Shown here piece by piece: positions 1-23,018 of a stretch of DNA of 64,000 nt. Within the stretch, counting starts at the first letter, position 1, and every line of letters begins with the position of its first letter. The notes below the pieces were generated by a model. The model was not told the origin of the DNA and did not search any database. It saw only the letters and a program-made list of their open reading frames with translations. Origin of the DNA: an uncultured virus (IMG/VR IMGVR_UViG_3300034656_000087) (lineage: Duplodnaviria; Heunggongvirae; Uroviricota; Caudoviricetes); the IMG/VR virus record IMGVR_UViG_3300034656_000087; one strand, written 5' to 3'. A program made the position numbers and the translations under genes.

Positions 1-273
1 ATAGAGTTCGGCGCGCGTGAACTCAAGCGGCTGATCCGCAGCGAGCTGGAAACCGCGCTGGCGCGCGAGATGCTGGGTGGCGGTATCGGCAAGGGCGATC
101 ACGCCAACGCCCGCTGGGACGACAAGGCCGAACGGGTGGTCTTCGAGCGCCAGGAGCCACCCGCGCAGCCGGCCGAGCCTGAAAAGCCCGATGCCGCGAA
201 CGTGGCCGAGGCACCGCCTAGCGACGAGAGCAAGGCTACGCGCAAGAAGAAGCCGGCGGACGGCGAATCTTGA
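1..273 (+). CDS. clpG: C-terminal end (partial) of ClpG/ClpK-type AAA+ disaggregase of the tLST/LHR heat-resistance island
   Basis: Frame 1 is open from base 1: EFGARELKRLIRSELETALAREMLGG, the Clp sensor-2 GARxLxR motif. It is followed by an acidic/Pro/Lys tail resembling ClpG-GI, and psiE-GI-like gene lies nearby. Confidence 0.8.
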   Translation: MEFGARELKRLIRSELETALAREMLGGGIGKGDHANARWDDKAERVVFERQEPPAQPAEPEKPDAANVAEAPPSDESKATRKKKPADGES

Positions 274-289
274 GCGATGGGTGGCTGTC

Positions 290-352
290 GTGTTCGACCC
301 CAACGGGCTGACATGGGCAGCCACCCTCGTGTCGCTGGCGGTCGCTATCCCA
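290..352 (+). pseudogene. Possible truncated N-terminus of the cardiolipin-synthase-like gene that follows clpG in tLST
   Basis: GTG-FDPNGLTWAATLVSLAVAIP hydrophobic start just after clpG, then the sequence diverges. Based on recalled synteny only. Confidence 0.3.
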
Positions 353-495
353 CCGCTTGCCGGTCTGGCCCACCTGGTGGGACGCGCCACCGGCCAGTCG
401 ATGCATAGCGACCCCAGCCACACAATCTTTGACGAAATGCGCTCCGAGTTGCAGAAACTTTGGAACCTCTGTTTCACCCCTAAGGAGCGTCACCT

Positions 496-2917: not shown

Positions 2918-2989
2918 TGTTTTAAAACCTTATACGCATAAAAAAGCGCAAAATACGCAATTAAAAACAACGGATGCTCATTTATCCGC

Positions 2990-3018
2990 TTGATGTGCGT
3001 TTTTATCCGCGTTATGTT
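2990..3018 (+). promoter_or_regulatory. Putative early promoter (Pe) with flanking operator-like repeats
   Basis: TTGATG-17 bp-TATGTT; TTTATCCGC repeated at 2981 and 3002; CGGATGC/GCATCCG motifs nearby. Confidence 0.6.
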
Positions 3019-3070
3019 TATGGGGAACCACAGGTTAGACACCCCAAAAAAACGCCACTGAGGTGACGCC

Positions 3071-3424
3071 ATGAACAGAGAAATTCCAATCAATCCATCT
3101 CAGCGTTGGGAGTGGCTGAAATATCAGCTGCGAAGCAAAGGCTACAGCTTGCGCAAATTAGGCGACGAGCTAGGCGTCACCGATAACGCAGTCCAGCTAG
3201 CTAAGTACACGCCCTACCCCCGCATGGAGCGCGCTATTGCCAAAAAGCTTGGCTTTGCTCCACAAGCTATTTGGCCAGAGCGCTGGAACCATGATGGAAC
3301 CCCCTGCCGAGAGCGCCCCAACCGTTCAGAAAAGCTGACAGTCGTAAAAGCGCAAAAACGTTTATGCGACAAGGATAGCGTTTCTAACGCTTCGGCGCAT
3401 CGTCAAATGGCGCAGGGAGCGTAG
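3071..3424 (+). CDS. ner: Ner-like DNA-binding regulator
   Basis: LRSKGYSLRKL...YPRMERAIAKKLG..PQAIWPERW, Ner/Nlp signature; position upstream of transposase. Confidence 0.9.
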   Translation: MNREIPINPSQRWEWLKYQLRSKGYSLRKLGDELGVTDNAVQLAKYTPYPRMERAIAKKLGFAPQAIWPERWNHDGTPCRERPNRSEKLTVVKAQKRLCDKDSVSNASAHRQMAQGA

Positions 3425-3426
3425 CC

Positions 3427-3864
3427 ATGAAGCGCGTCAAAGACACCCAAACGCTAGACATCTTTGAGGTACCGGCTCCAGTCGTGCCTGCACCAGGTAG
3501 CGGTAACTACGCCGCTCAGGTGAGTGAGCTGGTAGGGGTAATTCTCAAAGAGTGCCCCGTTGACCGTTATGAGGTGGCGGCGCAAATGAGCCGTCTATCG
3601 GGTGACGACGTTTCCAAACACATGCTGGACGCCTGGAGTTCTCCTGGACGTTGTGACCACAACATCCCCTTCTACCGCATTCCGCTATTAGAAGAAGTTT
3701 GTCAGAGCCACATTTTTACCAATTGGCTAGTGCATCAGCGTGGTGGCCGAGTGGCCTATGGCCGTGAAGCACTCGCTGCGGAATATGGCAAACGCCAGCA
3801 AATGCTCGAAAAGCTCAAGCAAGACATGAAAGAGCTGAAGCGTTTAATGGGAGATGTGGAATGA
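3427..3864 (+). CDS. Conserved Mu-like phage early protein, function unknown
   Basis: Tightly coupled ORF between ner and transposase. Confidence 0.75.
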   Translation: MKRVKDTQTLDIFEVPAPVVPAPGSGNYAAQVSELVGVILKECPVDRYEVAAQMSRLSGDDVSKHMLDAWSSPGRCDHNIPFYRIPLLEEVCQSHIFTNWLVHQRGGRVAYGREALAAEYGKRQQMLEKLKQDMKELKRLMGDVE

Positions 3865-5930
3865 ACTGGTTCACCGCCAAAGAGCTGGCAGGTCTACCAG
3901 GGCTGCCTGGCACCGAACGAAACGTGCGCGAATACGCCAAGCGCCATGGTTGGGAAGGCCAACGCCGCATAGGCAGCAAGGCCGTGGAATACGCCTTCGC
4001 CGTACTACCCAAAGAAACCCAAAACGCACTGCTGATCAAAAGTACAGACGCCGCAAAGCCCACATCACAGTCAAGGGGCTCTTGCATTAGTGAGGTGCAA
4101 ATAGAAGAGCAGCGCCCAAGCCAGCAGCAACTCACCGATGCTCAACGCCAAGTGATGGGTGCCCGCGTTGCGTTCGTCCGCGAGATCGAACGCATGAGCA
4201 AGATGGTCAGCCAGCAGCGCGCTATCGAAACGTTAGTCGCCCATGCCCAGGCCGACGATCTAACGCCTTACCTCAAACAGCGGGTAGTGCTGGCGAACGA
4301 CCGTAAAACAGAAACGCGCACCCTTAGCGAACGCACCCTCAAGCGCTGGATCGCTGACTTCCGCAAGCACGGTGAACGCGGCCTCGCCCCCAAACGCCGC
4401 AAAGCCGATATGAGCATGCCGCCGTGGGCCGGTGACTTTCTCAAGCGCTACCAGAAGCCGCAGAAACCATCGGTCGAAGCGGCCTATCAACTGCTTGTCG
4501 AGCAGACCGAGCCGCCGCACCCTTCTATCCATCAGGTGCGCCGCTGGCTTGCCAAGCTGTCACCGGAAGCGCGTGAGCGTGGCCGCATGGGTGCGCATGA
4601 GCTGAAAGCCCTCCAGCCCTTCAAGCGCCGCACCAGCGACGCGCTACTGCCCAACGATGTGTGGGTAGCGGATGGCCACACCTTCGATGCCGAAGTGATC
4701 AACCCGCTCACCGGCCAGGCTTTCCGGCCCGAGATTACCTTGATCATCGATTGGGGCACCCGCCGCATCGTCGGCTTTGCCCTCAACCTTGCCGAATCCA
4801 CTGTGGCCACGCTGGATGCACTGCGCGATGCCGTGAGCCGCGTAGGCATGTTCAACCTGTTCTATGTCGATAACGGTTCAGGCTTTGACAACGCCACTGT
4901 TTACGAAGTGGTCGACCGCCTGGGGGGCAGCATTACCCACTCACTGCCCTACAACTCCCAGGCACGCGGCGTCATTGAACGCGCCCACCAAACCATCCTG
5001 GTGAAACTGGCTAAAGAGATGCCCAGCTTTATTGGCGCAGATATGGATAAAGAAGCCGCCACTAAAGCGCACAAGTTAAGCCGCCGCGATATTAAACAAG
5101 GGTTAAATCCCGCCTTTATTCCCACGTTTCAAGAGTTCTTCGAGCGCTTGAACGACGCCCTGGATGTTTATAACCACCGGCCCCACAAAGGGCTGCCCAA
5201 AGTGCGCGACTTAGACAGCGGCAAGCTACGCCACCAAAGCCCCATGGAAGCCTGGAAAAGTGCCGAGGCCGAAGGCTTCGAAGCGCTCACCGCACCCAGT
5301 GATGTGGTCGCCTCGCTTATGCGCCCGCAAGAAGTGCGCAAAACCAACCGTGGCGAAGTGCGTATCAACGGCGGCGTCTACTTCATGGATGCCCTGCGCG
5401 ACTTCCACGGCGAAGAGATCCGTGTGGCCTGGGATTACCGCGACACCGGCTGCGTCGGCATCTTCACCCTGGAAGGTGAATACCTCGGCGATGCTCAACT
5501 AGATGGCAACGCCACACCCGCGATGCCCGCCAGCATGATCGAACGTGCCGCCGAAAAACGCGAAAAAGGCCAACTCAACCGTTTGGTGCAAAAAGCCAAG
5601 GTGGTCACCGGTAGCGATGTGGAGTTCAGAACGATTACCCCCGCCGCCCGCCAATCAGACGAAAAGCAGGCTGCCCAAGGCCGCGCCTACGCCAAGCGGC
5701 TGGCCGATCAAGGCACACGCTTTCAGATACCCCACAACAAGATGGAGCGCTATCGGCTCTGGAAGAAGCTGGATGGACAACTACAGCAAGGAGAAGAAGT
5801 ACCCGCCGCCGCCCGCGAATGGCACGAGCGTTACCAGCACCACAGTGATTTAAAAGCCATCGCCAAAGTGATGGATACCGAAATGGATGCAGGTGGGCGG
5901 CAACCCACCCGCACCCGACGGGCCGTCTGA
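3861..5930 (+). CDS. A: Mu-like DDE transposase (MuA)
   Basis: N-terminal Mu DNA-binding domain (WFTAKELAGLPGLP); catalytic WVADGH...YVDNGSG...GVIER; Mu-transposase C-terminal region. Confidence 0.97.
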   Translation: MNWFTAKELAGLPGLPGTERNVREYAKRHGWEGQRRIGSKAVEYAFAVLPKETQNALLIKSTDAAKPTSQSRGSCISEVQIEEQRPSQQQLTDAQRQVMGARVAFVREIERMSKMVSQQRAIETLVAHAQADDLTPYLKQRVVLANDRKTETRTLSERTLKRWIADFRKHGERGLAPKRRKADMSMPPWAGDFLKRYQKPQKPSVEAAYQLLVEQTEPPHPSIHQVRRWLAKLSPEARERGRMGAHELKALQPFKRRTSDALLPNDVWVADGHTFDAEVINPLTGQAFRPEITLIIDWGTRRIVGFALNLAESTVATLDALRDAVSRVGMFNLFYVDNGSGFDNATVYEVVDRLGGSITHSLPYNSQARGVIERAHQTILVKLAKEMPSFIGADMDKEAATKAHKLSRRDIKQGLNPAFIPTFQEFFERLNDALDVYNHRPHKGLPKVRDLDSGKLRHQSPMEAWKSAEAEGFEALTAPSDVVASLMRPQEVRKTNRGEVRINGGVYFMDALRDFHGEEIRVAWDYRDTGCVGIFTLEGEYLGDAQLDGNATPAMPASMIERAAEKREKGQLNRLVQKAKVVTGSDVEFRTITPAARQSDEKQAAQGRAYAKRLADQGTRFQIPHNKMERYRLWKKLDGQLQQGEEVPAAAREWHERYQHHSDLKAIAKVMDTEMDAGGRQPTRTRRAV

Positions 5931-5969: not shown

Positions 5970-6689
5970 ATGAGCGTCAACACCATTGTACCACTCACCA
6001 ACGTTGGCCTACTGGCCGCCGCTGTCGAAAGCGCCGCCAACCGCCCACCAGAACTACCTGGCTTAGTGGTCATGTACGGCCCCAGCGGCTACGGCAAAAG
6101 CCTGGCAGCCGCCTATGCCGCCAACCTGCACCGCGCCTACTACGTCGAGTGCCGCGAAAGCTGGACGAAGAAAGCGTTCGTGGTTGCCATCCTGCGCGAG
6201 ATGGGCATCATCCCCATGAAGACGCTGAGCGAGATGGTCGACCAGATCGCCGAGCAGCTCTCCCGCTCTGGTCGCCCGCTGATCATTGATGACGTTCAGT
6301 ACGTCATCGACAAAGCCGCCGCCAACGTTTTAACGGACATCTATAACGCCAGCCAAGGCACCCTGATTTTGATCGGTGAAGAGCGCGTGCCTGCCTCCAT
6401 GGCTCGCCTGGAGCGCCTGCATAACCGCGTCCTAGAATGGGTGCCCGCCCAAGCCGCCAGCCTGGACGACGTGTGTGCCCTGGCCGCCAAAAGCTACCCC
6501 GACATCATCATCGAAGACGACCTGCTAGACGCCATCAACCACCGTGTTAAAGGCTGCCTGCGCCGTGTGGCGGTGAACCTCTACCAGATCCACTCCGAAG
6601 CCACCGCCCAGGGCTGGAAGACAGTGGGCCTAAGCGAGTGGAGCGAGCAAGACATCCACACCGGCCAACCACCGGCGCGGAGGGGCTGA
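5970..6689 (+). CDS. B: Transposition AAA ATPase (MuB-like)
   Basis: Walker A GPSGYGKS, Walker B LIIDD; directly after transposase. Confidence 0.93.
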   Translation: MSVNTIVPLTNVGLLAAAVESAANRPPELPGLVVMYGPSGYGKSLAAAYAANLHRAYYVECRESWTKKAFVVAILREMGIIPMKTLSEMVDQIAEQLSRSGRPLIIDDVQYVIDKAAANVLTDIYNASQGTLILIGEERVPASMARLERLHNRVLEWVPAQAASLDDVCALAAKSYPDIIIEDDLLDAINHRVKGCLRRVAVNLYQIHSEATAQGWKTVGLSEWSEQDIHTGQPPARRG

Positions 6690-15250: not shown

Positions 15251-15351
15251 TGGATGAACTCACCATTGCACAGGCCATAGTCGATGCTGCCGATAGCCTC
15301 GGCTGGGCCATTGTGATCGCAGCCTTCATTCGGGGGTTCTTGAACAAATGA
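15250..15351 (+). CDS. 33-aa hydrophobic peptide between terS and terL
   Basis: TAATG and ATGA overlaps at both ends; MDELTIAQAIVDAADSLGWAIVIAAFIRGFLNK. Confidence 0.55.
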   Translation: MDELTIAQAIVDAADSLGWAIVIAAFIRGFLNK

Positions 15352-16859
15352 GCGTACTCCCCGAATCCGTCCTGCTGCCCTACCAAAAGGCGTGGATCGA
15401 AGACGACTCGGACCTCAAGATTGCCGAGAAAAGCCGCCGTACCGGCTTGACCTGGGGCGAAGCCGCCGATGCCGTGCTGTCGGCCAGCAGCGCCAAAGCC
15501 GCCGGGGGCACCAACCACTTCTATGTGGGCAGCAACAAAGACATGGCCATCGAGTTTATCGATGCCTGCGCCATGTGGGCCAAAGCGTTCAATCGCGCTG
15601 CCTCACACATCCAGGAAGAGCTGTACCAGGATGAGGATAAAGACATCCTCACCTTCAATATCCACTTCTCCAGCGGCTTCAAGATCCAGGCGCTCAGCTC
15701 GCGCCCCAGCAACATGCGTGGCCGCCAGGGTAACGTCACCATTGACGAAGCCGCTTTCCACGATCAGCTCGCCGAAGTGCTCAAAGCCGCGCTAGCCCTC
15801 ACCATGTGGGGTGCAAAAGTGCGCCTGATTAGCACCCACAACGGCGTCGAGAACCTGTTCAATGAGCTGATTCAAGACAGCCGTGCAGGCAAGAAGCGCT
15901 ACAGCGTTCACCGCATCACGCTGGATGATGCGTGCGAGCAAGGGCTCTATAAACGCATTTGCCAAGTGCGCGGCAAGCCCTGGACGCCAGAGGCAGAGGA
16001 AGAATGGAAGGCCAACCTGCTCAAGGACACCGCCACGCGGGAAGACGCCCTGGAGGAATACTACTGTGTACCCAAGGCAGGCGGCGGTGCTTACCTCTCA
16101 CGCGCCATGATCGAAGCGCGCATGGTCGATGCCCCGGTGATTCGCTTTGAAGGCAGTGCCGAATTCAACGCGGTACCGGAGCACTACCGCGCACTGGAAA
16201 TAGACGCCTGGTGCCAAGAGCACCTGCTGCCGCTGTTGGATAAGCTCGACCCCAAGCTGGCTCACTGCTTTGGCGAGGACTTTGGCCGCAGTGGCGACTT
16301 GACCGTCATTGCCCCCATGGCCATCACCCAGCAGCTCGTGCGTCAGGTACCGTTCCTGGTCGAACTGCGCAACGTGCCGTTCAAGCAGCAAGAGCAAGTG
16401 CTGTTCTTCATCGTGGACCGCCTGCCACGCCTGCAAGGCGGCGCGCTGGACGGTCGCGGCAACGGCCAGTACCTGGCCGAGCAAGCCGCCGAGCGCTACG
16501 GCAGCATTGTCGAGGTCATCATGCTTTCCCAAAGCTGGTACTTGAACAACATGCCGCCGTTCAAAGCCGCGTTCGAAGACGAGCTGATCAGCATTCCCCG
16601 CGACAGCCAAGTGGTCGACGACCTGCGCGCCCTGCAAGTGATCAAAGGCGTGCCTAAGCTGCCCGATGCCAAAACCGGCGACAGTAAAGATCGCCACGGC
16701 GATGCGGCCATCGCGCTGGCCATGGCGTACTACGCCAGCCTGATGGACGTGGTACCCATCGAATTCACCCCCGCGCCCCTGCCGGGTGCTGCCCGCCAGG
16801 ACAACGACAGCGACGACATTGAACCCAGCGGCTTTGGAATAGGAGGCGGCGCATGGTAA
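15348..16859 (+). CDS. Terminase large subunit (Mu gp28-like)
   Basis: LLPYQKAW, KSRRTGLTW, IDEAAFH, GEDFGRSGDL, HGDAAIA. Confidence 0.95.
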   Translation: MSVLPESVLLPYQKAWIEDDSDLKIAEKSRRTGLTWGEAADAVLSASSAKAAGGTNHFYVGSNKDMAIEFIDACAMWAKAFNRAASHIQEELYQDEDKDILTFNIHFSSGFKIQALSSRPSNMRGRQGNVTIDEAAFHDQLAEVLKAALALTMWGAKVRLISTHNGVENLFNELIQDSRAGKKRYSVHRITLDDACEQGLYKRICQVRGKPWTPEAEEEWKANLLKDTATREDALEEYYCVPKAGGGAYLSRAMIEARMVDAPVIRFEGSAEFNAVPEHYRALEIDAWCQEHLLPLLDKLDPKLAHCFGEDFGRSGDLTVIAPMAITQQLVRQVPFLVELRNVPFKQQEQVLFFIVDRLPRLQGGALDGRGNGQYLAEQAAERYGSIVEVIMLSQSWYLNNMPPFKAAFEDELISIPRDSQVVDDLRALQVIKGVPKLPDAKTGDSKDRHGDAAIALAMAYYASLMDVVPIEFTPAPLPGAARQDNDSDDIEPSGFGIGGGAW

Positions 16860-18472
16860 GCCCCACCGCGAAGTATCGGCGCAACCTGGTCAAAGCCAAC
16901 GCGCCCGCACTCAAAGAGCAACAGACGAACGATGCCCGCATCGGTCAGCTCAAGCGCGAATTTGCTGAGCACCCCACGAAAGGCCTCACGCCTGCGCGCC
17001 TGTACCAGATCCTGGAGGCCGCTGAGCAAGGCGACCTGAAAGCGCAGTCTGAACTGTTCGATGACATGGAGGAGAAAGACCCCCAGATCGGTGCCGACTT
17101 GGGCAAGCGTAGGCAACTAGCAGCAGAGCGCGAATGGCAGATCGTGCCGCCGGATAACGCCAGCGCCCAAGAGAAACGCGCCACCGAACACGCCATTGAG
17201 GTGTTCTCAGGGCTGGAGGTCGAAGACCTTATTCTGGATCTCGGTACCGGCATCGGCCACGGCTGGGCGAACCTGGAGCTTTCGTGGCAGCGTGATGGCG
17301 CACTGCGCTACATCGAGCAGCCCACGCTGCGCCCGCACTCCTGGTTCCGCTTGCACCCCGACGACCAGAACTGCATCACGCTGCGGGACAACAGCGCCAC
17401 CGGTGCCGAGCTATGGCCGTTGGGGTGGGTGCAACACCGCCACCGTGCCAAGAGCGGCTATGTCGCCCGCATGGGGCTGCACAGAATGCTGGCATGGCCC
17501 TACCTGTTCCAGAATTACGCGCTTGGCGACCTGGCGCAGTTGCTGGAAATCTACGGCCTACCGGCCCGTATCGGCACATACCCGCGTAACGCTACCGAGA
17601 AAGAGAAAGCGACGCTCTTACGCGCCGTCGTCACGCTGGGCCAGAACGCGGCGGGCATCATCCCGGAGGGCATGGGCATCGAGTTCATGGAAGCGGCAGG
17701 CAAGGGAGCGTCTGCGGATCTCTACAAAACCATGATGGACTGGTGCGAACGCGCCAAAGCCAAAGCGATCCTGGGCGGCACCTTAACCTCCGGTACAGGC
17801 GAGGGCACGAACACAAACGCACTCGGCAATGTGCACGAACGCGCACAGATGAGCCTGATCCGCTCCGATTCCCGTCAATACGCAGGCAGCATCCGTAATG
17901 CCATCCTCTGGCCCATGGCCGCGCTCAACTTCGGCATTGATAAGCCCCAGCGTGCGCCTCGGTTCTACCTCGACTGTGGCGAAACCGAAGACCTGGAGCG
18001 CCTCTCCAAGAGCTTGCCGACCATTGTGGACATGGGCGTAAAAGTGCCCATGTGGTGGTTCCATGAGAAAAGCGGCATCCCCAAAGCAGCCAAAGACGAA
18101 GAGGTGCTAATGCCAAAGGCAGCGCCAAACCCGTTCGGTGCGCTGCGAATTCCAGCATCACGGCCACCGCTAGCCGCCCTACGCCAGGCACCCACGCAAC
18201 CGGGCCAGCCGAGCTACTACCGCGATGCCACCCTCGATCAGATTGACGACCAAGCACAGCCAATCGTTGATGGCTGGGTGGCGCAGGTGCAGCAGTTGGT
18301 AGAGCAGGCGACCAGCTTCGAGCAGCTGCAAGAGATGATCGCCACGGCGTTTGACGACCTCGACGAATCGGAGCTTGCAGACGTGATGGCCACCGCGTTT
18401 GAGGCGGCCAACTTGGCAGGCCGTGCCACTGTTCTTGAAGGGCAGGATGAGGAAACCGGCGATGCCGATTAG
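16853..18472 (+). CDS. Portal protein (DUF935, Mu gp29)
   Basis: HPTKGLTP, AEQGDL..Q.ELF.DMEEKD, ILGGTLTS, ALGNVHE. Confidence 0.95.
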   Translation: MVSPTAKYRRNLVKANAPALKEQQTNDARIGQLKREFAEHPTKGLTPARLYQILEAAEQGDLKAQSELFDDMEEKDPQIGADLGKRRQLAAEREWQIVPPDNASAQEKRATEHAIEVFSGLEVEDLILDLGTGIGHGWANLELSWQRDGALRYIEQPTLRPHSWFRLHPDDQNCITLRDNSATGAELWPLGWVQHRHRAKSGYVARMGLHRMLAWPYLFQNYALGDLAQLLEIYGLPARIGTYPRNATEKEKATLLRAVVTLGQNAAGIIPEGMGIEFMEAAGKGASADLYKTMMDWCERAKAKAILGGTLTSGTGEGTNTNALGNVHERAQMSLIRSDSRQYAGSIRNAILWPMAALNFGIDKPQRAPRFYLDCGETEDLERLSKSLPTIVDMGVKVPMWWFHEKSGIPKAAKDEEVLMPKAAPNPFGALRIPASRPPLAALRQAPTQPGQPSYYRDATLDQIDDQAQPIVDGWVAQVQQLVEQATSFEQLQEMIATAFDDLDESELADVMATAFEAANLAGRATVLEGQDEETGDAD

Positions 18473-19628
18473 CGCCCAGTTCAACCGCCCGTTCCCGGAG
18501 CAGGTCACGTTCTTCCGTAACAAGCTGAACCTGCCCACCACGCGCTCCGGGCAAATCACCCGCGACCAAAACGACGCGGCCTTTGTGGTGGCCGGTGCCA
18601 CCAAGGCCGACCTGCTCGCGGATCTGCGCAGCGCAGTAGACGACGCGATCAGCAACGGCCAAAGCCTAGGCGAGTTTCGCCAGCAGTTTGAGGAGATCGT
18701 CGCCAAGCGAGGGTGGACCGGCTGGACAGGTGAAGGCAGCAAAGCAGGCCGCGCATGGCGTACCCGTCTTATCTACAAGACGAACCTCGATACCAGCTAC
18801 GCCGCTGGCCGCTGGCAGCAGATGACTGACCCGGACGTGGTTCGACTGCGCCCCTACTGGCGCTACATCCACAACACCATCGAAAACCCACGCCAGCAGC
18901 ACCAGCGCTGGAACAACCTGGTGCTGCGTGCCGATGACCCGTGGTGGCAAGCGCACTACCCACCCAACGGCTTTGGCTGCAACTGCGGTGTGGAAACACT
19001 AAACGAACGCGGCCTGCGCCGCCTGGGTAAAGATGGCCCGGATTCAGCACCGAATGACGGCACCTATGAACACGTCGATAACACCACCGGTGAAGTGGTC
19101 ACCGTGCCAAACGGAGTGCAACCCGGCTGGGACTACGCCCCAGGGCAAACCGCCACCGAGCGTGCGATCGCTGCGCGGTTAGAGCGCCTGGATAGCGTCG
19201 AAGCCACGATTGCAAGGCAGCATGTGGCCGACTTGGTCGAAGCGCCATTATTCAACCGCTTTTGGAATGGCGAAGTGCAAGGCGAGTATCCGGTAGCGGT
19301 GGTACCGCCCGTAGAACGGCAGGTGCTAGGCGCAGAAAGCCCCGTGGTGCTGCTCTCACAAGAGAGCCTCACGGCGCACAAGGTCAGCCACCCCGAAGTG
19401 GGCTTGGAGGATTACCGCCGGATTCAGCAGATACTGGACGAAGGCGAGGTGTACCAACGGGAAAGCGAACCAGGTCGCATGGTCTACCTGAACCTGGGCG
19501 AACGGCTATACAGAGCCGCGCTAAAGCGGACAAGCGATGGCAAGAAGAACTACTTCCTCACGCTGTTTATCGTGAGCGATGAAAAAGCCGAGCGGGAAGT
19601 CAGGCAGAAGATGGAGCGCGTGCGCTAG
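18462..19628 (+). CDS. F: MuF (gp30) minor head protein with C-terminal BECR/PBECR2-like nuclease extension
   Basis: AFVVAGA, TNL.TSYAAGRW, HYPPNGFGCNC, GWDYAPG; extension ~19245-19628 with HPEV..EDY..I..IL.EG and K.T.DG...YFLTL. Confidence 0.85.
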   Translation: MPISAQFNRPFPEQVTFFRNKLNLPTTRSGQITRDQNDAAFVVAGATKADLLADLRSAVDDAISNGQSLGEFRQQFEEIVAKRGWTGWTGEGSKAGRAWRTRLIYKTNLDTSYAAGRWQQMTDPDVVRLRPYWRYIHNTIENPRQQHQRWNNLVLRADDPWWQAHYPPNGFGCNCGVETLNERGLRRLGKDGPDSAPNDGTYEHVDNTTGEVVTVPNGVQPGWDYAPGQTATERAIAARLERLDSVEATIARQHVADLVEAPLFNRFWNGEVQGEYPVAVVPPVERQVLGAESPVVLLSQESLTAHKVSHPEVGLEDYRRIQQILDEGEVYQRESEPGRMVYLNLGERLYRAALKRTSDGKKNYFLTLFIVSDEKAEREVRQKMERVR

Positions 19629-19648
19629 AGGAACTGAGCTTGAGGAAC

Positions 19649-19732
19649 GTGGTGCAACGCTGGTTCGCCATCCCCAGATACCTCATCTGCTTACGCAGGG
19701 TACACCAGGCGAATATTGGTCTTTCGCACCAC
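19649..19732 (+). ncRNA. Putative structured RNA: four-way junction with loop-loop pseudoknot
   Basis: P1 GTGGTGC/GCACCAC, P2 CTGG/CCAG, P3 TACC..CTGC/GCAG.GGTA, P4 ACCA/TGGT; loops TTCGCC and GGCGAA are complementary. Confidence 0.65.
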
Positions 19733-19754
19733 AAGAACAGTATAGGAGAGAACC

Positions 19755-20195
19755 GTGATCACCATCAACGCCAACACCGACGCCATCGAACGCGCCATTC
19801 AGGAGCTGATCAACAAAGGCGACGACCTCACCGCGCCGATGAAGTCAATTGGCGAGGAGATGGTCAACCGCACTCAACAAAGGTTTAGGGATAAAGAAGC
19901 ACCGGACGGCACGCCCTGGCAAGATAACTCCCCCGTCACAGAAAAACGCAAAGGCCACGGGCGAGTACTCGAAGGCGAGAGCAAGCAGCTCGCCAAACAG
20001 TTCAGCTACAGCGCCAGCAGCGAAGGCGTCGAATGGGGCAGCCTGATGGTCTACGCCGCGATGCAGAACTACGGCGGCACCAAAGCCGAGTTCCCCCACC
20101 TATGGGGCGACATCCCCAGCCGCGAGTTCATCGGCCTGAGCGATGACGACGAAGACGAGGTATTGGGCATCCTCGCCGACCACCTAAGTCTCTAA
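19755..20195 (+). CDS. G: Virion morphogenesis protein (Mu gpG)
   Basis: RF....APDG.PW, YAAMQNYGG, IPSREFIGLS. Confidence 0.9.
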   Translation: MITINANTDAIERAIQELINKGDDLTAPMKSIGEEMVNRTQQRFRDKEAPDGTPWQDNSPVTEKRKGHGRVLEGESKQLAKQFSYSASSEGVEWGSLMVYAAMQNYGGTKAEFPHLWGDIPSREFIGLSDDDEDEVLGILADHLSL

Positions 20196-21911: not shown

Positions 21912-23018
21912 ATGAAAACACAAAGCCTTCAAACAAAGCCCCGCGTCGCCGCCTGCGCTCTTCGAGTGCAGATAACTGACGACAAGACGCGCCTGATGCC
22001 TGCTGGCACCTTTCACGCACCGCGTGGGGCTGCTGAAGGCACCGGCCCGTGGCATCTCTCTGCCGAAGCCGCTCAAGCGATTATCCAATTGGCCGCTGCG
22101 CGCAGTACCGACATCGCCATCGACTACGAACACCAGATCCTCTACTCCGAAAAGAACGGCCAGCCCGCGCCTGCGTCTGGCTGGGTCGACCCGCGCTCGC
22201 TTGAGTTTCGGGAAGATGGCCTGTACGGCACGGTGACTTGGACGGCCAAGGCCCGTGCTGCCATCGAAGAAGGCCCCAATGGCGAGCCACCCGAATACCG
22301 CTACCTCTCCCCCGTATTCCCCTACGACGCCAACGGCGTGCCGCTCGATCTGCTGCACCTGGCGTTGACCAACACCCCCGCCATTGATGAGGGCGCGGCG
22401 CAGCTTGCCGCCGCTCGGATGGCGATAGCCCATGACGTCACCGACGACGCCCAGGAGATCGACACCGTGAAACGAGAACAACTGATTGCCACGCTCGGCC
22501 TGGCCACCGATGCCACCGACGAACAGATCGACACCGCCATCGCAGCCTTGAAAGCCGCCAAGGCAGATGCCGACGCCTTCCGCACCGCGTTGGGTGCCAA
22601 AGACGACGCGAAGCCAGCGGAAGCCGTAGCAGCGCTCAAGGCCTCCAGTGCAGCCGCACCGGTAGACATGACGCAGTTCGTGCCCGTGGCCGTGTACCAA
22701 GAAACCACTCAGCAGCTAGCCGCCCTGAAAGCCAACGGCAACAACGCTGAGCTAGACGCCCTCATCAAGCAGGGCCTGGATGATGGTCGCATCCCTGGTG
22801 AGGCGACAGCCGATTGGTTGCGCGAACAAGGCCTCGCCGCCTGTAAGGCGCATCTTGAAGGCGCACCCAGCATCGCCGCGCTGAAAACCACGCAGACCCA
22901 GGGCAAGCCCCTGGAAGGCAAAGAGACCGGCGAAGGCAAGCTCAACGAGACCGAGCTGGCGGTGTGCAAGGCGATGGGCTTAACGCCTGAGCAGTACCGC
23001 GCCGCTAACCCAGCGTAA
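21912..23018 (+). CDS. I: Prohead protease/scaffold (Mu gpI)
   Basis: IDYEHQ, PAPASGW, YRYLSPVF, ALTNTPAI. Confidence 0.95.
   Translation: MKTQSLQTKPRVAACALRVQITDDKTRLMPAGTFHAPRGAAEGTGPWHLSAEAAQAIIQLAAARSTDIAIDYEHQILYSEKNGQPAPASGWVDPRSLEFREDGLYGTVTWTAKARAAIEEGPNGEPPEYRYLSPVFPYDANGVPLDLLHLALTNTPAIDEGAAQLAAARMAIAHDVTDDAQEIDTVKREQLIATLGLATDATDEQIDTAIAALKAAKADADAFRTALGAKDDAKPAEAVAALKASSAAAPVDMTQFVPVAVYQETTQQLAALKANGNNAELDALIKQGLDDGRIPGEATADWLREQGLAACKAHLEGAPSIAALKTTQTQGKPLEGKETGEGKLNETELAVCKAMGLTPEQYRAANPA
22467..23018 (+). CDS. Z: Nested in-frame scaffold protein (Mu gpZ-like)
   Basis: AGGAG at 22453-22457 and in-frame GTG at 22467, after the protease domain. Confidence 0.65.
   Translation: MKREQLIATLGLATDATDEQIDTAIAALKAAKADADAFRTALGAKDDAKPAEAVAALKASSAAAPVDMTQFVPVAVYQETTQQLAALKANGNNAELDALIKQGLDDGRIPGEATADWLREQGLAACKAHLEGAPSIAALKTTQTQGKPLEGKETGEGKLNETELAVCKAMGLTPEQYRAANPA

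Follow-up and report, generated by a model that had tools for sequence, protein, structure and literature searches.

A conserved pseudoknotted RNA beside the RNase-like domain of a MuF head protein in Mu-like prophages, a candidate RNA antitoxin

The closest described relatives of the system considered here are the MuF polymorphic toxins. In these proteins a MuF head domain is joined to a C-terminal ribonuclease (RNase) of the BECR type, and the product is predicted to be packaged and injected (PMC5512222 and PMC5576092, in the sections that treat these toxins). Fusions of MuF with PBECR domains are described in the corresponding sections of Iyer 2017 (PMC5512222), which place the PBECR active site in a His of a helix and a Ser or Thr of a strand and call the MuF-C domain of phage Mu itself inactive. 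RNase-bearing phage head proteins have been known since 2017; what they target and how the producing cell survives them remained open, the latter because no immunity protein accompanies MuF RNase domains. This text concerns one such head protein and its genetic neighbor, a structured RNA encoded directly after the MuF gene of an uncultured virus of the Caudoviricetes (IMG/VR record IMGVR_UViG_3300034656_000087). The stretch analysed, called the window below, is 64,000 nucleotides (nt) long, and its late region is of the Mu-like prophage type.

As in the published toxins, the window's MuF gene joins a head domain to a predicted BECR-type domain, and the C-terminal part is exchanged as a cassette, with a sharp drop of identity after residue 300. 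Unlike in the published toxins, a structured RNA gene takes the place of the protein immunity gene; the examined parts of PMC5512222 and PMC5576092 do not mention an RNA at this position. The assignment of PBECR domains to MuF proteins is already published and hence not new.

Three other kinds of system invite comparison. In type III toxin-antitoxin systems, such as ToxIN, CptIN, and TenpIN, an endoribonuclease gene stands beside a pseudoknotted RNA, and the type of RNA follows the protein. Some type I toxin-antitoxin systems, for instance txpA/RatA and bsrG/SR4, use convergent antisense RNAs. Finally, tRNA-like decoys are exemplified by the bacterial Y RNA YrlA and by viral tRNA-like structures.

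The RNA of the window lies between the MuF gene (plus strand, 18462..19628, 388 amino acids) and the next late gene, gpG (plus strand, 19755..20195), which encodes a virion morphogenesis protein (PF05069, E 8.2e-29). Within the 126-nt gap between 19628 and 19755, an RNA of 84 nt with a four-way junction, or cloverleaf, occupies 19649..19732, probably on the minus strand; it scores 106.1 bits with the covariance model R3 and is supported by covariation. Its closing stem, P1, has 7 bp (19649-19655/19726-19732, GTGGTGC/GCACCAC). The first arm, P2 (19660-19663/19674-19677, CTGG/CCAG), carries the loop TTCGCC at 19664-19669. The middle arm, P3, is formed by 19679-19682/19699-19702 and by a further hairpin, P3b (19688-19690/19695-19697), separated by an internal loop that reads CTCATC on the plus strand (GAUGAG in the minus sense) and is invariant in alignments A3, A6, and A8. 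The third arm, P4 (19704-19707/19717-19720), carries the loop GGCGAA at 19708-19713, which can pair with the P2 loop (19664-19669) as a kissing helix.

A preliminary description of this DNA, made from the single sequence, had drawn these four helices and the complementary hexamers TTCGCC/GGCGAA, and all of them are found where it had drawn them. It had also held that the gap contains no self-contained protein gene. This agrees with the ORF list and alignment A8, in which the gap has no frame-conserved open reading frame (ORF), because the indels among homologues are not multiples of three. Nor is there a protein immunity gene directly 3' of MuF, where the next conserved gene is gpG.

A related element stands directly 3' of the MuF stop codon in nearly all of 22 loci that encode MuF relatives, and it keeps this place even where the next gene is not gpG. 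Two sequence types can be distinguished. Type A is represented by models R1 and R2 and alignments A5 to A7, type B, to which the window belongs, by model R3 and alignment A8. R3 was built separately because the type A models score type B weakly, leaving the window unmatched at E up to 10. The type B alignment, made with plain MAFFT from 13 distinct sequences, has 96.7% of its 361 pair cells paired, compared with 87.0% in shuffles, and none of 500 shuffles reaches the pairing or the covariation score. Fifteen of its 29 pairs have changed on both sides; when the partners are slid by 1-3 columns, this number falls to 0-2. The type A alignment A6 comprises 24 distinct sequences and was made with a covariance model, hence leaning towards structure; there 89.6% of the cells are paired, compared with 60.3% in shuffles, 23 of 30 pairs have changed on both sides, and 180 cells are compensatory against at most 44 in the slid controls. 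Among the individual helices of A8, P1 shows changes on both sides in seven of eight annotated pairs and P3b in all three, and P2 has one compensatory pair of four, with 96.2% of its cells paired.

The kissing helix takes part in these changes. In type B, one of its pairs co-varies, being C-G in seven sequences, U-A in five, and mismatched in one (n=13). In type A the helix switches among GGC/GCC, GCC/GGC, CGC/GCG, and CGGC/GCCG. Across the whole family, six classes of loop words occur: GGC/GCC in 13 sequences, GCC/GGC (including AGCC/GGCU) in four, CGC/GCG in four, CGGC/GCCG in three, UUCGCC/GGCGAA in six, and UUCGUC/GACGAA in five. At least three Watson-Crick pairs are kept in 37 of 39 sequences. 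Seven loci with a more distant version of the C-terminal domain have variant RNAs, with 5-nt loop complements GACAG/CTGTC, GCGAG/CTCGC, GAGAG/CTCTC, and, four times, GGGAG/CTCCC. The covariation that the preliminary description had called for, the kissing pair included, is therefore present in both types, and comparative sequence analysis confirms that the gap encodes a real, conserved, pseudoknotted four-way-junction RNA.

The case for the RNA is made by this comparison among relatives, since the folding energy of the single sequence does not single the element out. The whole 126-nt gap has a minimum free energy (MFE) of -31.1 kcal/mol, with a z-score of +0.26, and 120 of 200 shuffles fold at least as well. 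The 84-nt element is not distinctive either, with z-scores of -1.64 (plus strand) and -1.97 (minus strand). Its minimum-energy fold nests both kissing hexamers as an ordinary helix.

The RNA family is uncatalogued in Rfam 15. On neither strand does cmscan match the element, with an E cutoff of 10 for the window and of 1 for 27 related loci. ARAGORN predicts no tRNA gene in 19500-19900 of the window and none in 25 of 26 related loci. Members occur in prophages of Halomonadaceae, Methylococcaceae, Desulfobacteraceae, Undibacterium, and Verminephrobacter, as well as in marine metagenomes. A DNA pattern scan of viral contigs returned 114 stretches, of which six are real and already known and 108 have no such domain nearby. 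Literature searches, whose reach did not extend to bioRxiv supplements, found no published description of this RNA.

The protein that precedes the RNA carries an additional domain at its C-terminus. The preliminary description had noted two motifs in the MuF tail, HPEV..EDY and K.T.DG...YFLTL; both are found there. They belong to a PBECR3-like BECR-fold domain of residues ~262-388 (plus strand, 19245..19625), whose putative active-site codons are Ser299 (19356-19358), His310 (19389-19391), Lys355 (19524-19526), and Thr357 (19530-19532). The ~127 C-terminal residues are conserved across MuF proteins of ~380-400 amino acids and also occur as stand-alone proteins of 100-200 amino acids, with 354 representatives at E up to 1e-3. 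Ser299, Lys355, and Thr357 are invariant in alignment A1 and His310 nearly so; in A2 the invariant residues are Ser299, Tyr318, and Lys355. The domain thus matches the active-site pattern of a His in a helix and a Ser or Thr in a late strand.

An AlphaFold model of the domain, built from a 46-sequence alignment, has a pLDDT of 96. Its nearest fold neighbors are BrnT (Z 6.7, rmsd 2.7, 75 aligned residues), CdiA-CT NC101 (Z 6.3), a Salmonella toxin (Z 6.2), and colicin D (Z 5.8), followed by entries for RelE, HigB, YoeB, ParE, colicin E5, and T4 RegB. Foldseek agrees weakly, with BrnT as its best match (probability 1.00, E 7.9e-3). The individual scores are modest; the assignment is persuasive because the list of matches is uniform. 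Seven of the 46 aligned relatives match PF18812 PBECR3 (best E 4.1e-5), and one matches PBECR1. The fold agrees with the plan of the colicin D/E5, RelE, and CdiA-CT tRNases, in which a four- to five-stranded sheet comes after an N-terminal helix. With moderate confidence, then, the model places the MuF extension in the phage PBECR clade of BECR-fold domains; PBECR3 is the Pfam family that comes closest among its relatives. Of the earlier suggestion of a BECR/PBECR2-fold RNase, the BECR fold stands, BECR/RelE-type RNases being the best structural neighbors, and PBECR2 gives way to PBECR3. A search of Protein Data Bank sequences gives no match, and tblastn of the domain against 50,697 GenBank phage records gives six weak matches with at most 48% identity over part of the query, five of them in Helicobacter prophages; none supplies a cultured phage as a model.

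Two observations concern the layout of the protein. In a Desulfobacula genome bin (L014), MuF is split into a core ORF (2465-2977) and an ORF for the C-terminal domain (2984-3613), and the RNA is kept; a frameshift, a stop, or faulty assembly explains the split. Elsewhere, the MuF core and a PBECR-like domain end much larger open frames (L040 1-2613; P0066, 821 amino acids; P0073, 729 amino acids), possibly portal-MuF fusions.

The relationship between RNA and domain can be examined from either side. Starting from the protein, 143 loci yielded 65 complete domain-bearing MuF genes with 57 distinct tails. Downstream of 44 tails, the covariance models detect an RNA at E below 1e-3, of type A in 28 cases and of type B in 16, and in every one of these tails His310, Lys355, and Thr357 are intact. 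Another seven precede the variant RNAs, and six of these seven keep His310 and Lys355. The remaining six tails, from three lineages, have no RNA; Lys355 is lost in all six, His310 in five, and Thr357 in five. In one RNA-less clade (L029, L226, L227, and L228), MuF stops 8 nt before gpG, and a deletion of four residues that removes His306 is joined by His310Asn, Lys355Arg, and Thr357Glu or Gln. In L087 the gap to gpG is 4 nt and the substitutions are His310Tyr and Lys355Thr; L097 has Ser299Ala, Lys355Arg, and Thr357Asn.

Other MuF genes were compared as well. In phage Mu, F overlaps G by 4 nt and there is no RNA at this place. Model R2 has no match in 72 complete MuF loci without the domain, and R3 has none in the 61 domain-less loci searched with it (best 14.7 bits, E 0.63), as the preliminary description would have it for MuF genes lacking the extension. 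MuF genes without any C-terminal domain abut gpG, ten of twelve measured gaps being at most 23 nt. These counts support the view that, in the protein-first loci, the RNA is tied to a domain whose putative catalytic residues are intact.

Domain and RNA also change together. The window's MuF is 88-98% identical to those of five relatives (L002, L003, L004, L224, and L230) over residues 1-300 and 49-58% identical over residues 301-388. The five relatives carry a type A RNA and the window a type B RNA. The sharp drop at about residue 300, together with the change of RNA type, indicates that catalytic core and RNA were exchanged together, like toxin and immunity cassettes.

Starting from the RNA, 151 genomes from the family of one related host were searched. 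R3 hits seven places, one of them weak (28.3 bits) and probably false, and R2 hits nine. Six of the eleven sites lie directly after a domain-bearing MuF gene (G001 contig 6, G002, G003, G004, G033 with two tandem copies, and G113 contig 235). The other five have no MuF-PBECR gene within 1.5 kb. In G001, where a second contig bears a type A copy linked to MuF, an orphan type B-like RNA on contig 4 (L267 5962-6045, 94.9 bits) adjoins a type I-E CRISPR-Cas system (Cas6e, Cas1, Cas2, and repeats) and host genes. In G098 (contig 3, 193673-194051; L268 ~5974-6352), one B-like and two type A copies form an array without MuF or gpG; the host genes on either side of it encode a GGDEF regulator and a prolyl oligopeptidase. 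After the first copy come a -10 box and a few codons left over from the beginning of gpG, in which the -35 box lies. G147 has a tandem of B and A without MuF, G113 contig 11 has a single copy without MuF, and in G152 a copy is followed by gpG with no MuF within 1.5 kb. The orphan copies are intact, as judged by scores of 65-95 bits. Because they occur in chromosomes without MuF, the RNA is an autonomous gene, and the intact orphans and mixed-type arrays recall orphan immunity genes. The tandem copies of G033 (contig 41, the same as L018 3674-3752 and 3764-3842) are two type A RNAs after a single MuF gene, with the kissing words GGC/GCC and CGC/GCG.

The helices by themselves do not discriminate between the strands, and evidence on the direction of transcription has to come from elsewhere. 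On the minus strand, a sigma-70-type promoter is predicted at 19739..19768, with the -35 box TTGATG (19768-19763), an 18-nt spacer, and the -10 box TATACT (19744-19739). In the minus sense P1 starts at 19732, and the -10 box ends 6 nt ahead of this base; the promoter is the sole promoter-like site in 19450-19950 (shuffle mean 0.2). Among 45 distinct flanks, a promoter whose -10 box ends 4-10 nt before P1 is found in 21 in the minus sense and in none in the plus sense; for the -10 box alone (at least five of six matches) the numbers are 23 and 0. An AGTATAG box, which is this -10, is conserved in 32 of 44 flanks.

Mismatches within the helices are also informative. Read in the plus sense, the alignments contain A.C cells, which are G.U on the other strand, at 19 pairs (34 cells in A6 and 11 in A8). 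Plus-sense G.U cells occur at 8 pairs (26 in A6 and 2 in A8), 18 of them at one single pair; several of the A.C cells are intermediates between co-varying Watson-Crick states. GNRA or UNCG tetraloops cap P3b in five of 31 distinct tips in the minus sense and in none in the plus sense. For 26 of 39 sequences the minus strand has the lower MFE, the mean difference being 1.5 kcal/mol (Wilcoxon p 0.007, for sequences that are not independent). Taken together, these features make it rather likely that the RNA is transcribed from the minus strand, from its own predicted sigma-70-type promoter. It would then probably be a separate small-RNA gene and not a part of the MuF-gpG mRNA, where the preliminary description had placed it; neither a type III-like arrangement nor a cis processing site, the latter one of that description's proposals, fits such an RNA.

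Contigs from marine RNA libraries of two studies span 19454-19719 and 19493-19750 and so bridge the MuF stop and the element. They may include DNA and are strandless, without ends or levels, and they count neither for nor against either strand. Compared with the window, one of them has G for A at 19693, within the P3b loop, and further differences outside the stems.

The locus can now be set beside the known systems. It resembles type III toxin-antitoxin systems in the pairing of a predicted RNase gene with an adjacent pseudoknotted RNA whose type varies with the protein. It differs in that the RNA is usually a single copy of ~84 nt instead of short tandem repeats, tandem copies being confined to a few loci. 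The position differs as well: the RNA is encoded 3' of the gene and is probably read from the other strand, under its own predicted promoter; the tandem repeats upstream on the same strand that mark type III are absent. In addition, the predicted enzyme, a domain of a virion protein, is of the BECR fold and unlike ToxN, and its inhibition is conjectured. As in type I systems, a small RNA is predicted to run towards the gene of a presumably harmful product and to meet it at the 3' end. Unlike in type I, however, the RNA has a conserved tertiary fold with an intramolecular kissing helix, orphan copies without a cis target exist, the predicted convergent RNA lies beyond the stop codon, and the presumed toxin is a soluble domain of 127 amino acids in a 388-residue protein and not a small membrane peptide.

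The similarity to tRNA and tRNA-like decoys is one of shape. The cloverleaf, the 7-bp closing stem, and the contact between the loops of the first and third arms, which recalls the D-loop/T-loop contact, are common to both. The sizes of arms and loops differ, the middle arm has a conserved internal loop and an extra hairpin, and the window element matches no tRNA or tmRNA in ARAGORN or Rfam. C4 (RF01695), an antisense RNA, is likewise small, structured, and encoded in P1- and Mu-like prophages, but it has no match in sequence or structure to the element. A C4 RNA does occur 3' of gpG in a Methylobacter Mu-like prophage (L010 4211-4294, 66.7 bits), next to a sub-threshold isrK-like match at 4122-4200.

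Two smaller motifs were considered and rejected. The minus-strand UGAUGAG recalls the CUGAUGA core of the hammerhead ribozyme. Its order is wrong, with the motif 3' of the hairpin; GAAA and a third helix are missing, and the Rfam ribozyme models do not match. A kink-turn of the C/D-box type was set aside by inspection, since the opposite strand of the internal loop lacks the required GA.

The best explanation, which we put forward tentatively and which falls somewhat short of an even chance, is that the tRNA-shaped minus-strand RNA is a dedicated partner of the intact PBECR3-like MuF domain and serves as a pseudo-substrate antitoxin or immunity factor. In this model, the small RNA would be read antisense to the late operon, its -10 box lying between the RNA and the start of gpG. 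The MuF head protein is thought to be packaged and ejected with the DNA, carrying the putative RNase domain along. The folded RNA may bind this domain as a tRNA-like pseudo-substrate and so keep it harmless in the producing cell. Lone chromosomal copies could then protect against the same RNase when it arrives with an incoming phage.

Neutralisation is proposed because the RNA sits at the position of an immunity gene, switches together with the domain as a cassette, and is lost together with the catalytic residues, and because its tRNA-like shape occurs beside relatives of tRNases. A role as antitoxin or immunity gene is plausible. A wider proposal, which we regard as doubtful, is that Mu-like phages, having armed the ejected MuF with a BECR tRNase-like domain, disarm it by a cognate tRNA-mimicking RNA in place of an immunity protein, that RNase core and RNA are swapped as specificity cassettes, and that the orphans, the arrays, and the copy next to CRISPR-Cas represent bacterial RNA immunity against injected RNases.

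Several observations weigh against the partnership of RNA and domain. At five of the eleven RNA-first sites the RNA persists, and perhaps works, without the domain, and these orphan copies may be prophage debris. One locus, L081, keeps a variant RNA despite Gly and Gln at the positions of His310 and Lys355. The linkage in the protein-first loci is partly shared ancestry, the counts coming from related sequences and not from independent events. The window's own domain has no Pfam match even at E 10, and no fold Z-score exceeds 6.7, a level at which, by the tool's own warning, a match may reflect a common arrangement. As for the strand, one conserved pair is G.U in the plus sense (18 of 24 type A sequences), the window copy has no U-tract after P1 in the minus sense and a T-rich tract is present in only 10 of 44 flanks, and the -35 hexamer lies within gpG codons that are conserved anyway.

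Another model treats the minus-strand RNA as a cis-antisense regulator of the type I or CopA kind. It would pair with its perfect complement in the late mRNA between MuF and gpG, and the duplex would be cut, for instance by RNase III, so that MuF expression is lowered or uncoupled, or leaky late transcripts in lysogens are silenced; the stems and loops would serve fast kissing with their mirror image in the mRNA. The convergent arrangement and the predicted promoter agree with this, and the complement of the RNA is necessarily present in the late transcript. The RNA-library contigs, strandless and possibly derived in part from DNA, bridge the MuF stop and the element. Loss of the RNA with an inactive domain would equally fit a regulator of a toxic product. 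The intramolecular loop-loop helix, however, co-varies although sense-antisense pairing does not need it. The RNA also lies outside the MuF coding region and leaves the gpG ribosome-binding site uncovered, and the orphan copies and arrays have no cis target. Regulation in cis is an unlikely account of the RNA.

A further possibility is an autonomous tRNA-like RNA that has nothing to do with the domain. Such an RNA might be a decoy against host defence nucleases that target tRNA, or a regulator of host genes; the space between MuF and gpG would then be a favored slot for added genes, and the linkage would reflect common descent. About half of the RNA-first sites lack MuF and the RNA has its own predicted promoter, as this model would expect, and differing classes of RNA fill the same slot in different Mu-like phages. 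Against it, three separate RNA-less lineages are all substituted at conserved catalytic positions, recombination at about residue 300 has exchanged the catalytic core jointly with the RNA type, and the slot is mostly closed in MuF genes without a C-terminal domain. Independence from the domain is in our judgement improbable.

The version of the preliminary description, a plus-strand element within the MuF-gpG mRNA that acts as cis antitoxin, decoy, or processing site, fares worse and has only a small probability. The helices could form equally well on that strand, the orientation relative to MuF is constant with the element directly after the stop codon, the conserved G.U pair of type A favors it, and the RNA-library contigs run from MuF into the element. 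Yet A.C mismatches affect more pairs than G.U, stable tetraloops appear in the minus sense only, and the -10 box keeps its distance from P1 on the minus strand alone. Moreover, the orphans retain the promoter region and not the upstream gene, and a sister family, described below, is tRNA-like in the minus sense only. That the element is not an RNA at all, but a DNA-level recombination or packaging site or a chance cluster of palindromes, would agree with the unremarkable folding energy and with the fact that no transcript ends or strand have been seen, and is very improbable given compensatory changes in every helix including the pseudoknot and an A.C/G.U asymmetry and tetraloops that mark a single-stranded transcript.

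If the RNA does neutralise its neighbor, BECR-fold RNases would have their first RNA antidote, and polymorphic-toxin-like systems their first "immunity gene" made of RNA. A conserved, co-switching RNA at the place of an immunity gene makes the question of how the producing cell survives experimentally simple. If the orphan chromosomal copies protect against phages, they would form a new, RNA-only layer of phage-host conflict. Whatever its function, a widespread RNA family outside Rfam is added.

Structured RNAs after MuF genes are not limited to this family. Other Mu-like MuF genes carry PBECR2, PBECR3, or MuF_C domains, and many of them have behind them a gap of ~90-120 nt that contains other structured sequences, apparently RNAs ~100 nt long, and an AGTATAG-type box. 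A sister class of six loci (L089, L063, L076, L079, L092, and L073) lies directly after the stop codon of MuF genes whose C-terminal domain has no Pfam match. Its minus-sense fold is a cloverleaf that has a closing stem of 7 bp, several G.U pairs, and a GGTTCGAATCC T-arm. L073 alone has a weak minus-strand tRNA call by ARAGORN and reaches 32 bits, below threshold, with the Rfam tRNA-Sec model. Because some PBECR2 MuF genes abut gpG without a gap, as in L067 and others, the pattern of an RNA after MuF is frequent and not universal.

Some individual gaps deserve mention. In L052, L237, L080, L100, L083, and L084, where MuF carries a PBECR2, PBECR3, or MuF_C domain, the gap of 72-120 nt after the stop codon seems to hold structures of other kinds; there are loop-loop complements in L080 and L100 and possible pseudoknots in L052 and L237. 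In L101, the 126 nt after a short MuF gene are filled by tandem repeats of the GGATTAAGGATTAGA type, with no cloverleaf RNA.

The remaining late genes of the window are arranged as follows. The terminase large subunit (15348-16859) is followed by the portal gene (16853-18472, PF06074), whose end is overlapped by the MuF start codon, an ATG at 18462. The MuF protein, a Mu gp30-like minor head protein, matches PF04233 at residues 55-177 (E 7.2e-14) and phrog_220, "minor head protein and DNA pilot" (E 6e-90), and its close relatives are annotated in Halomonas and Vreelandella. A gene for a protease/scaffold protein lies at 21912-23018. Between it and gpG, the segment 20237-21855 holds two ORFs, one of ~329 amino acids whose sole match is weak, to phrog_3482, and one of 175 amino acids whose sole match, weak and sub-threshold, is to the Voltage_CLC membrane-channel family. 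The pair looks like a cargo ("moron") insertion in a Mu-like late operon.

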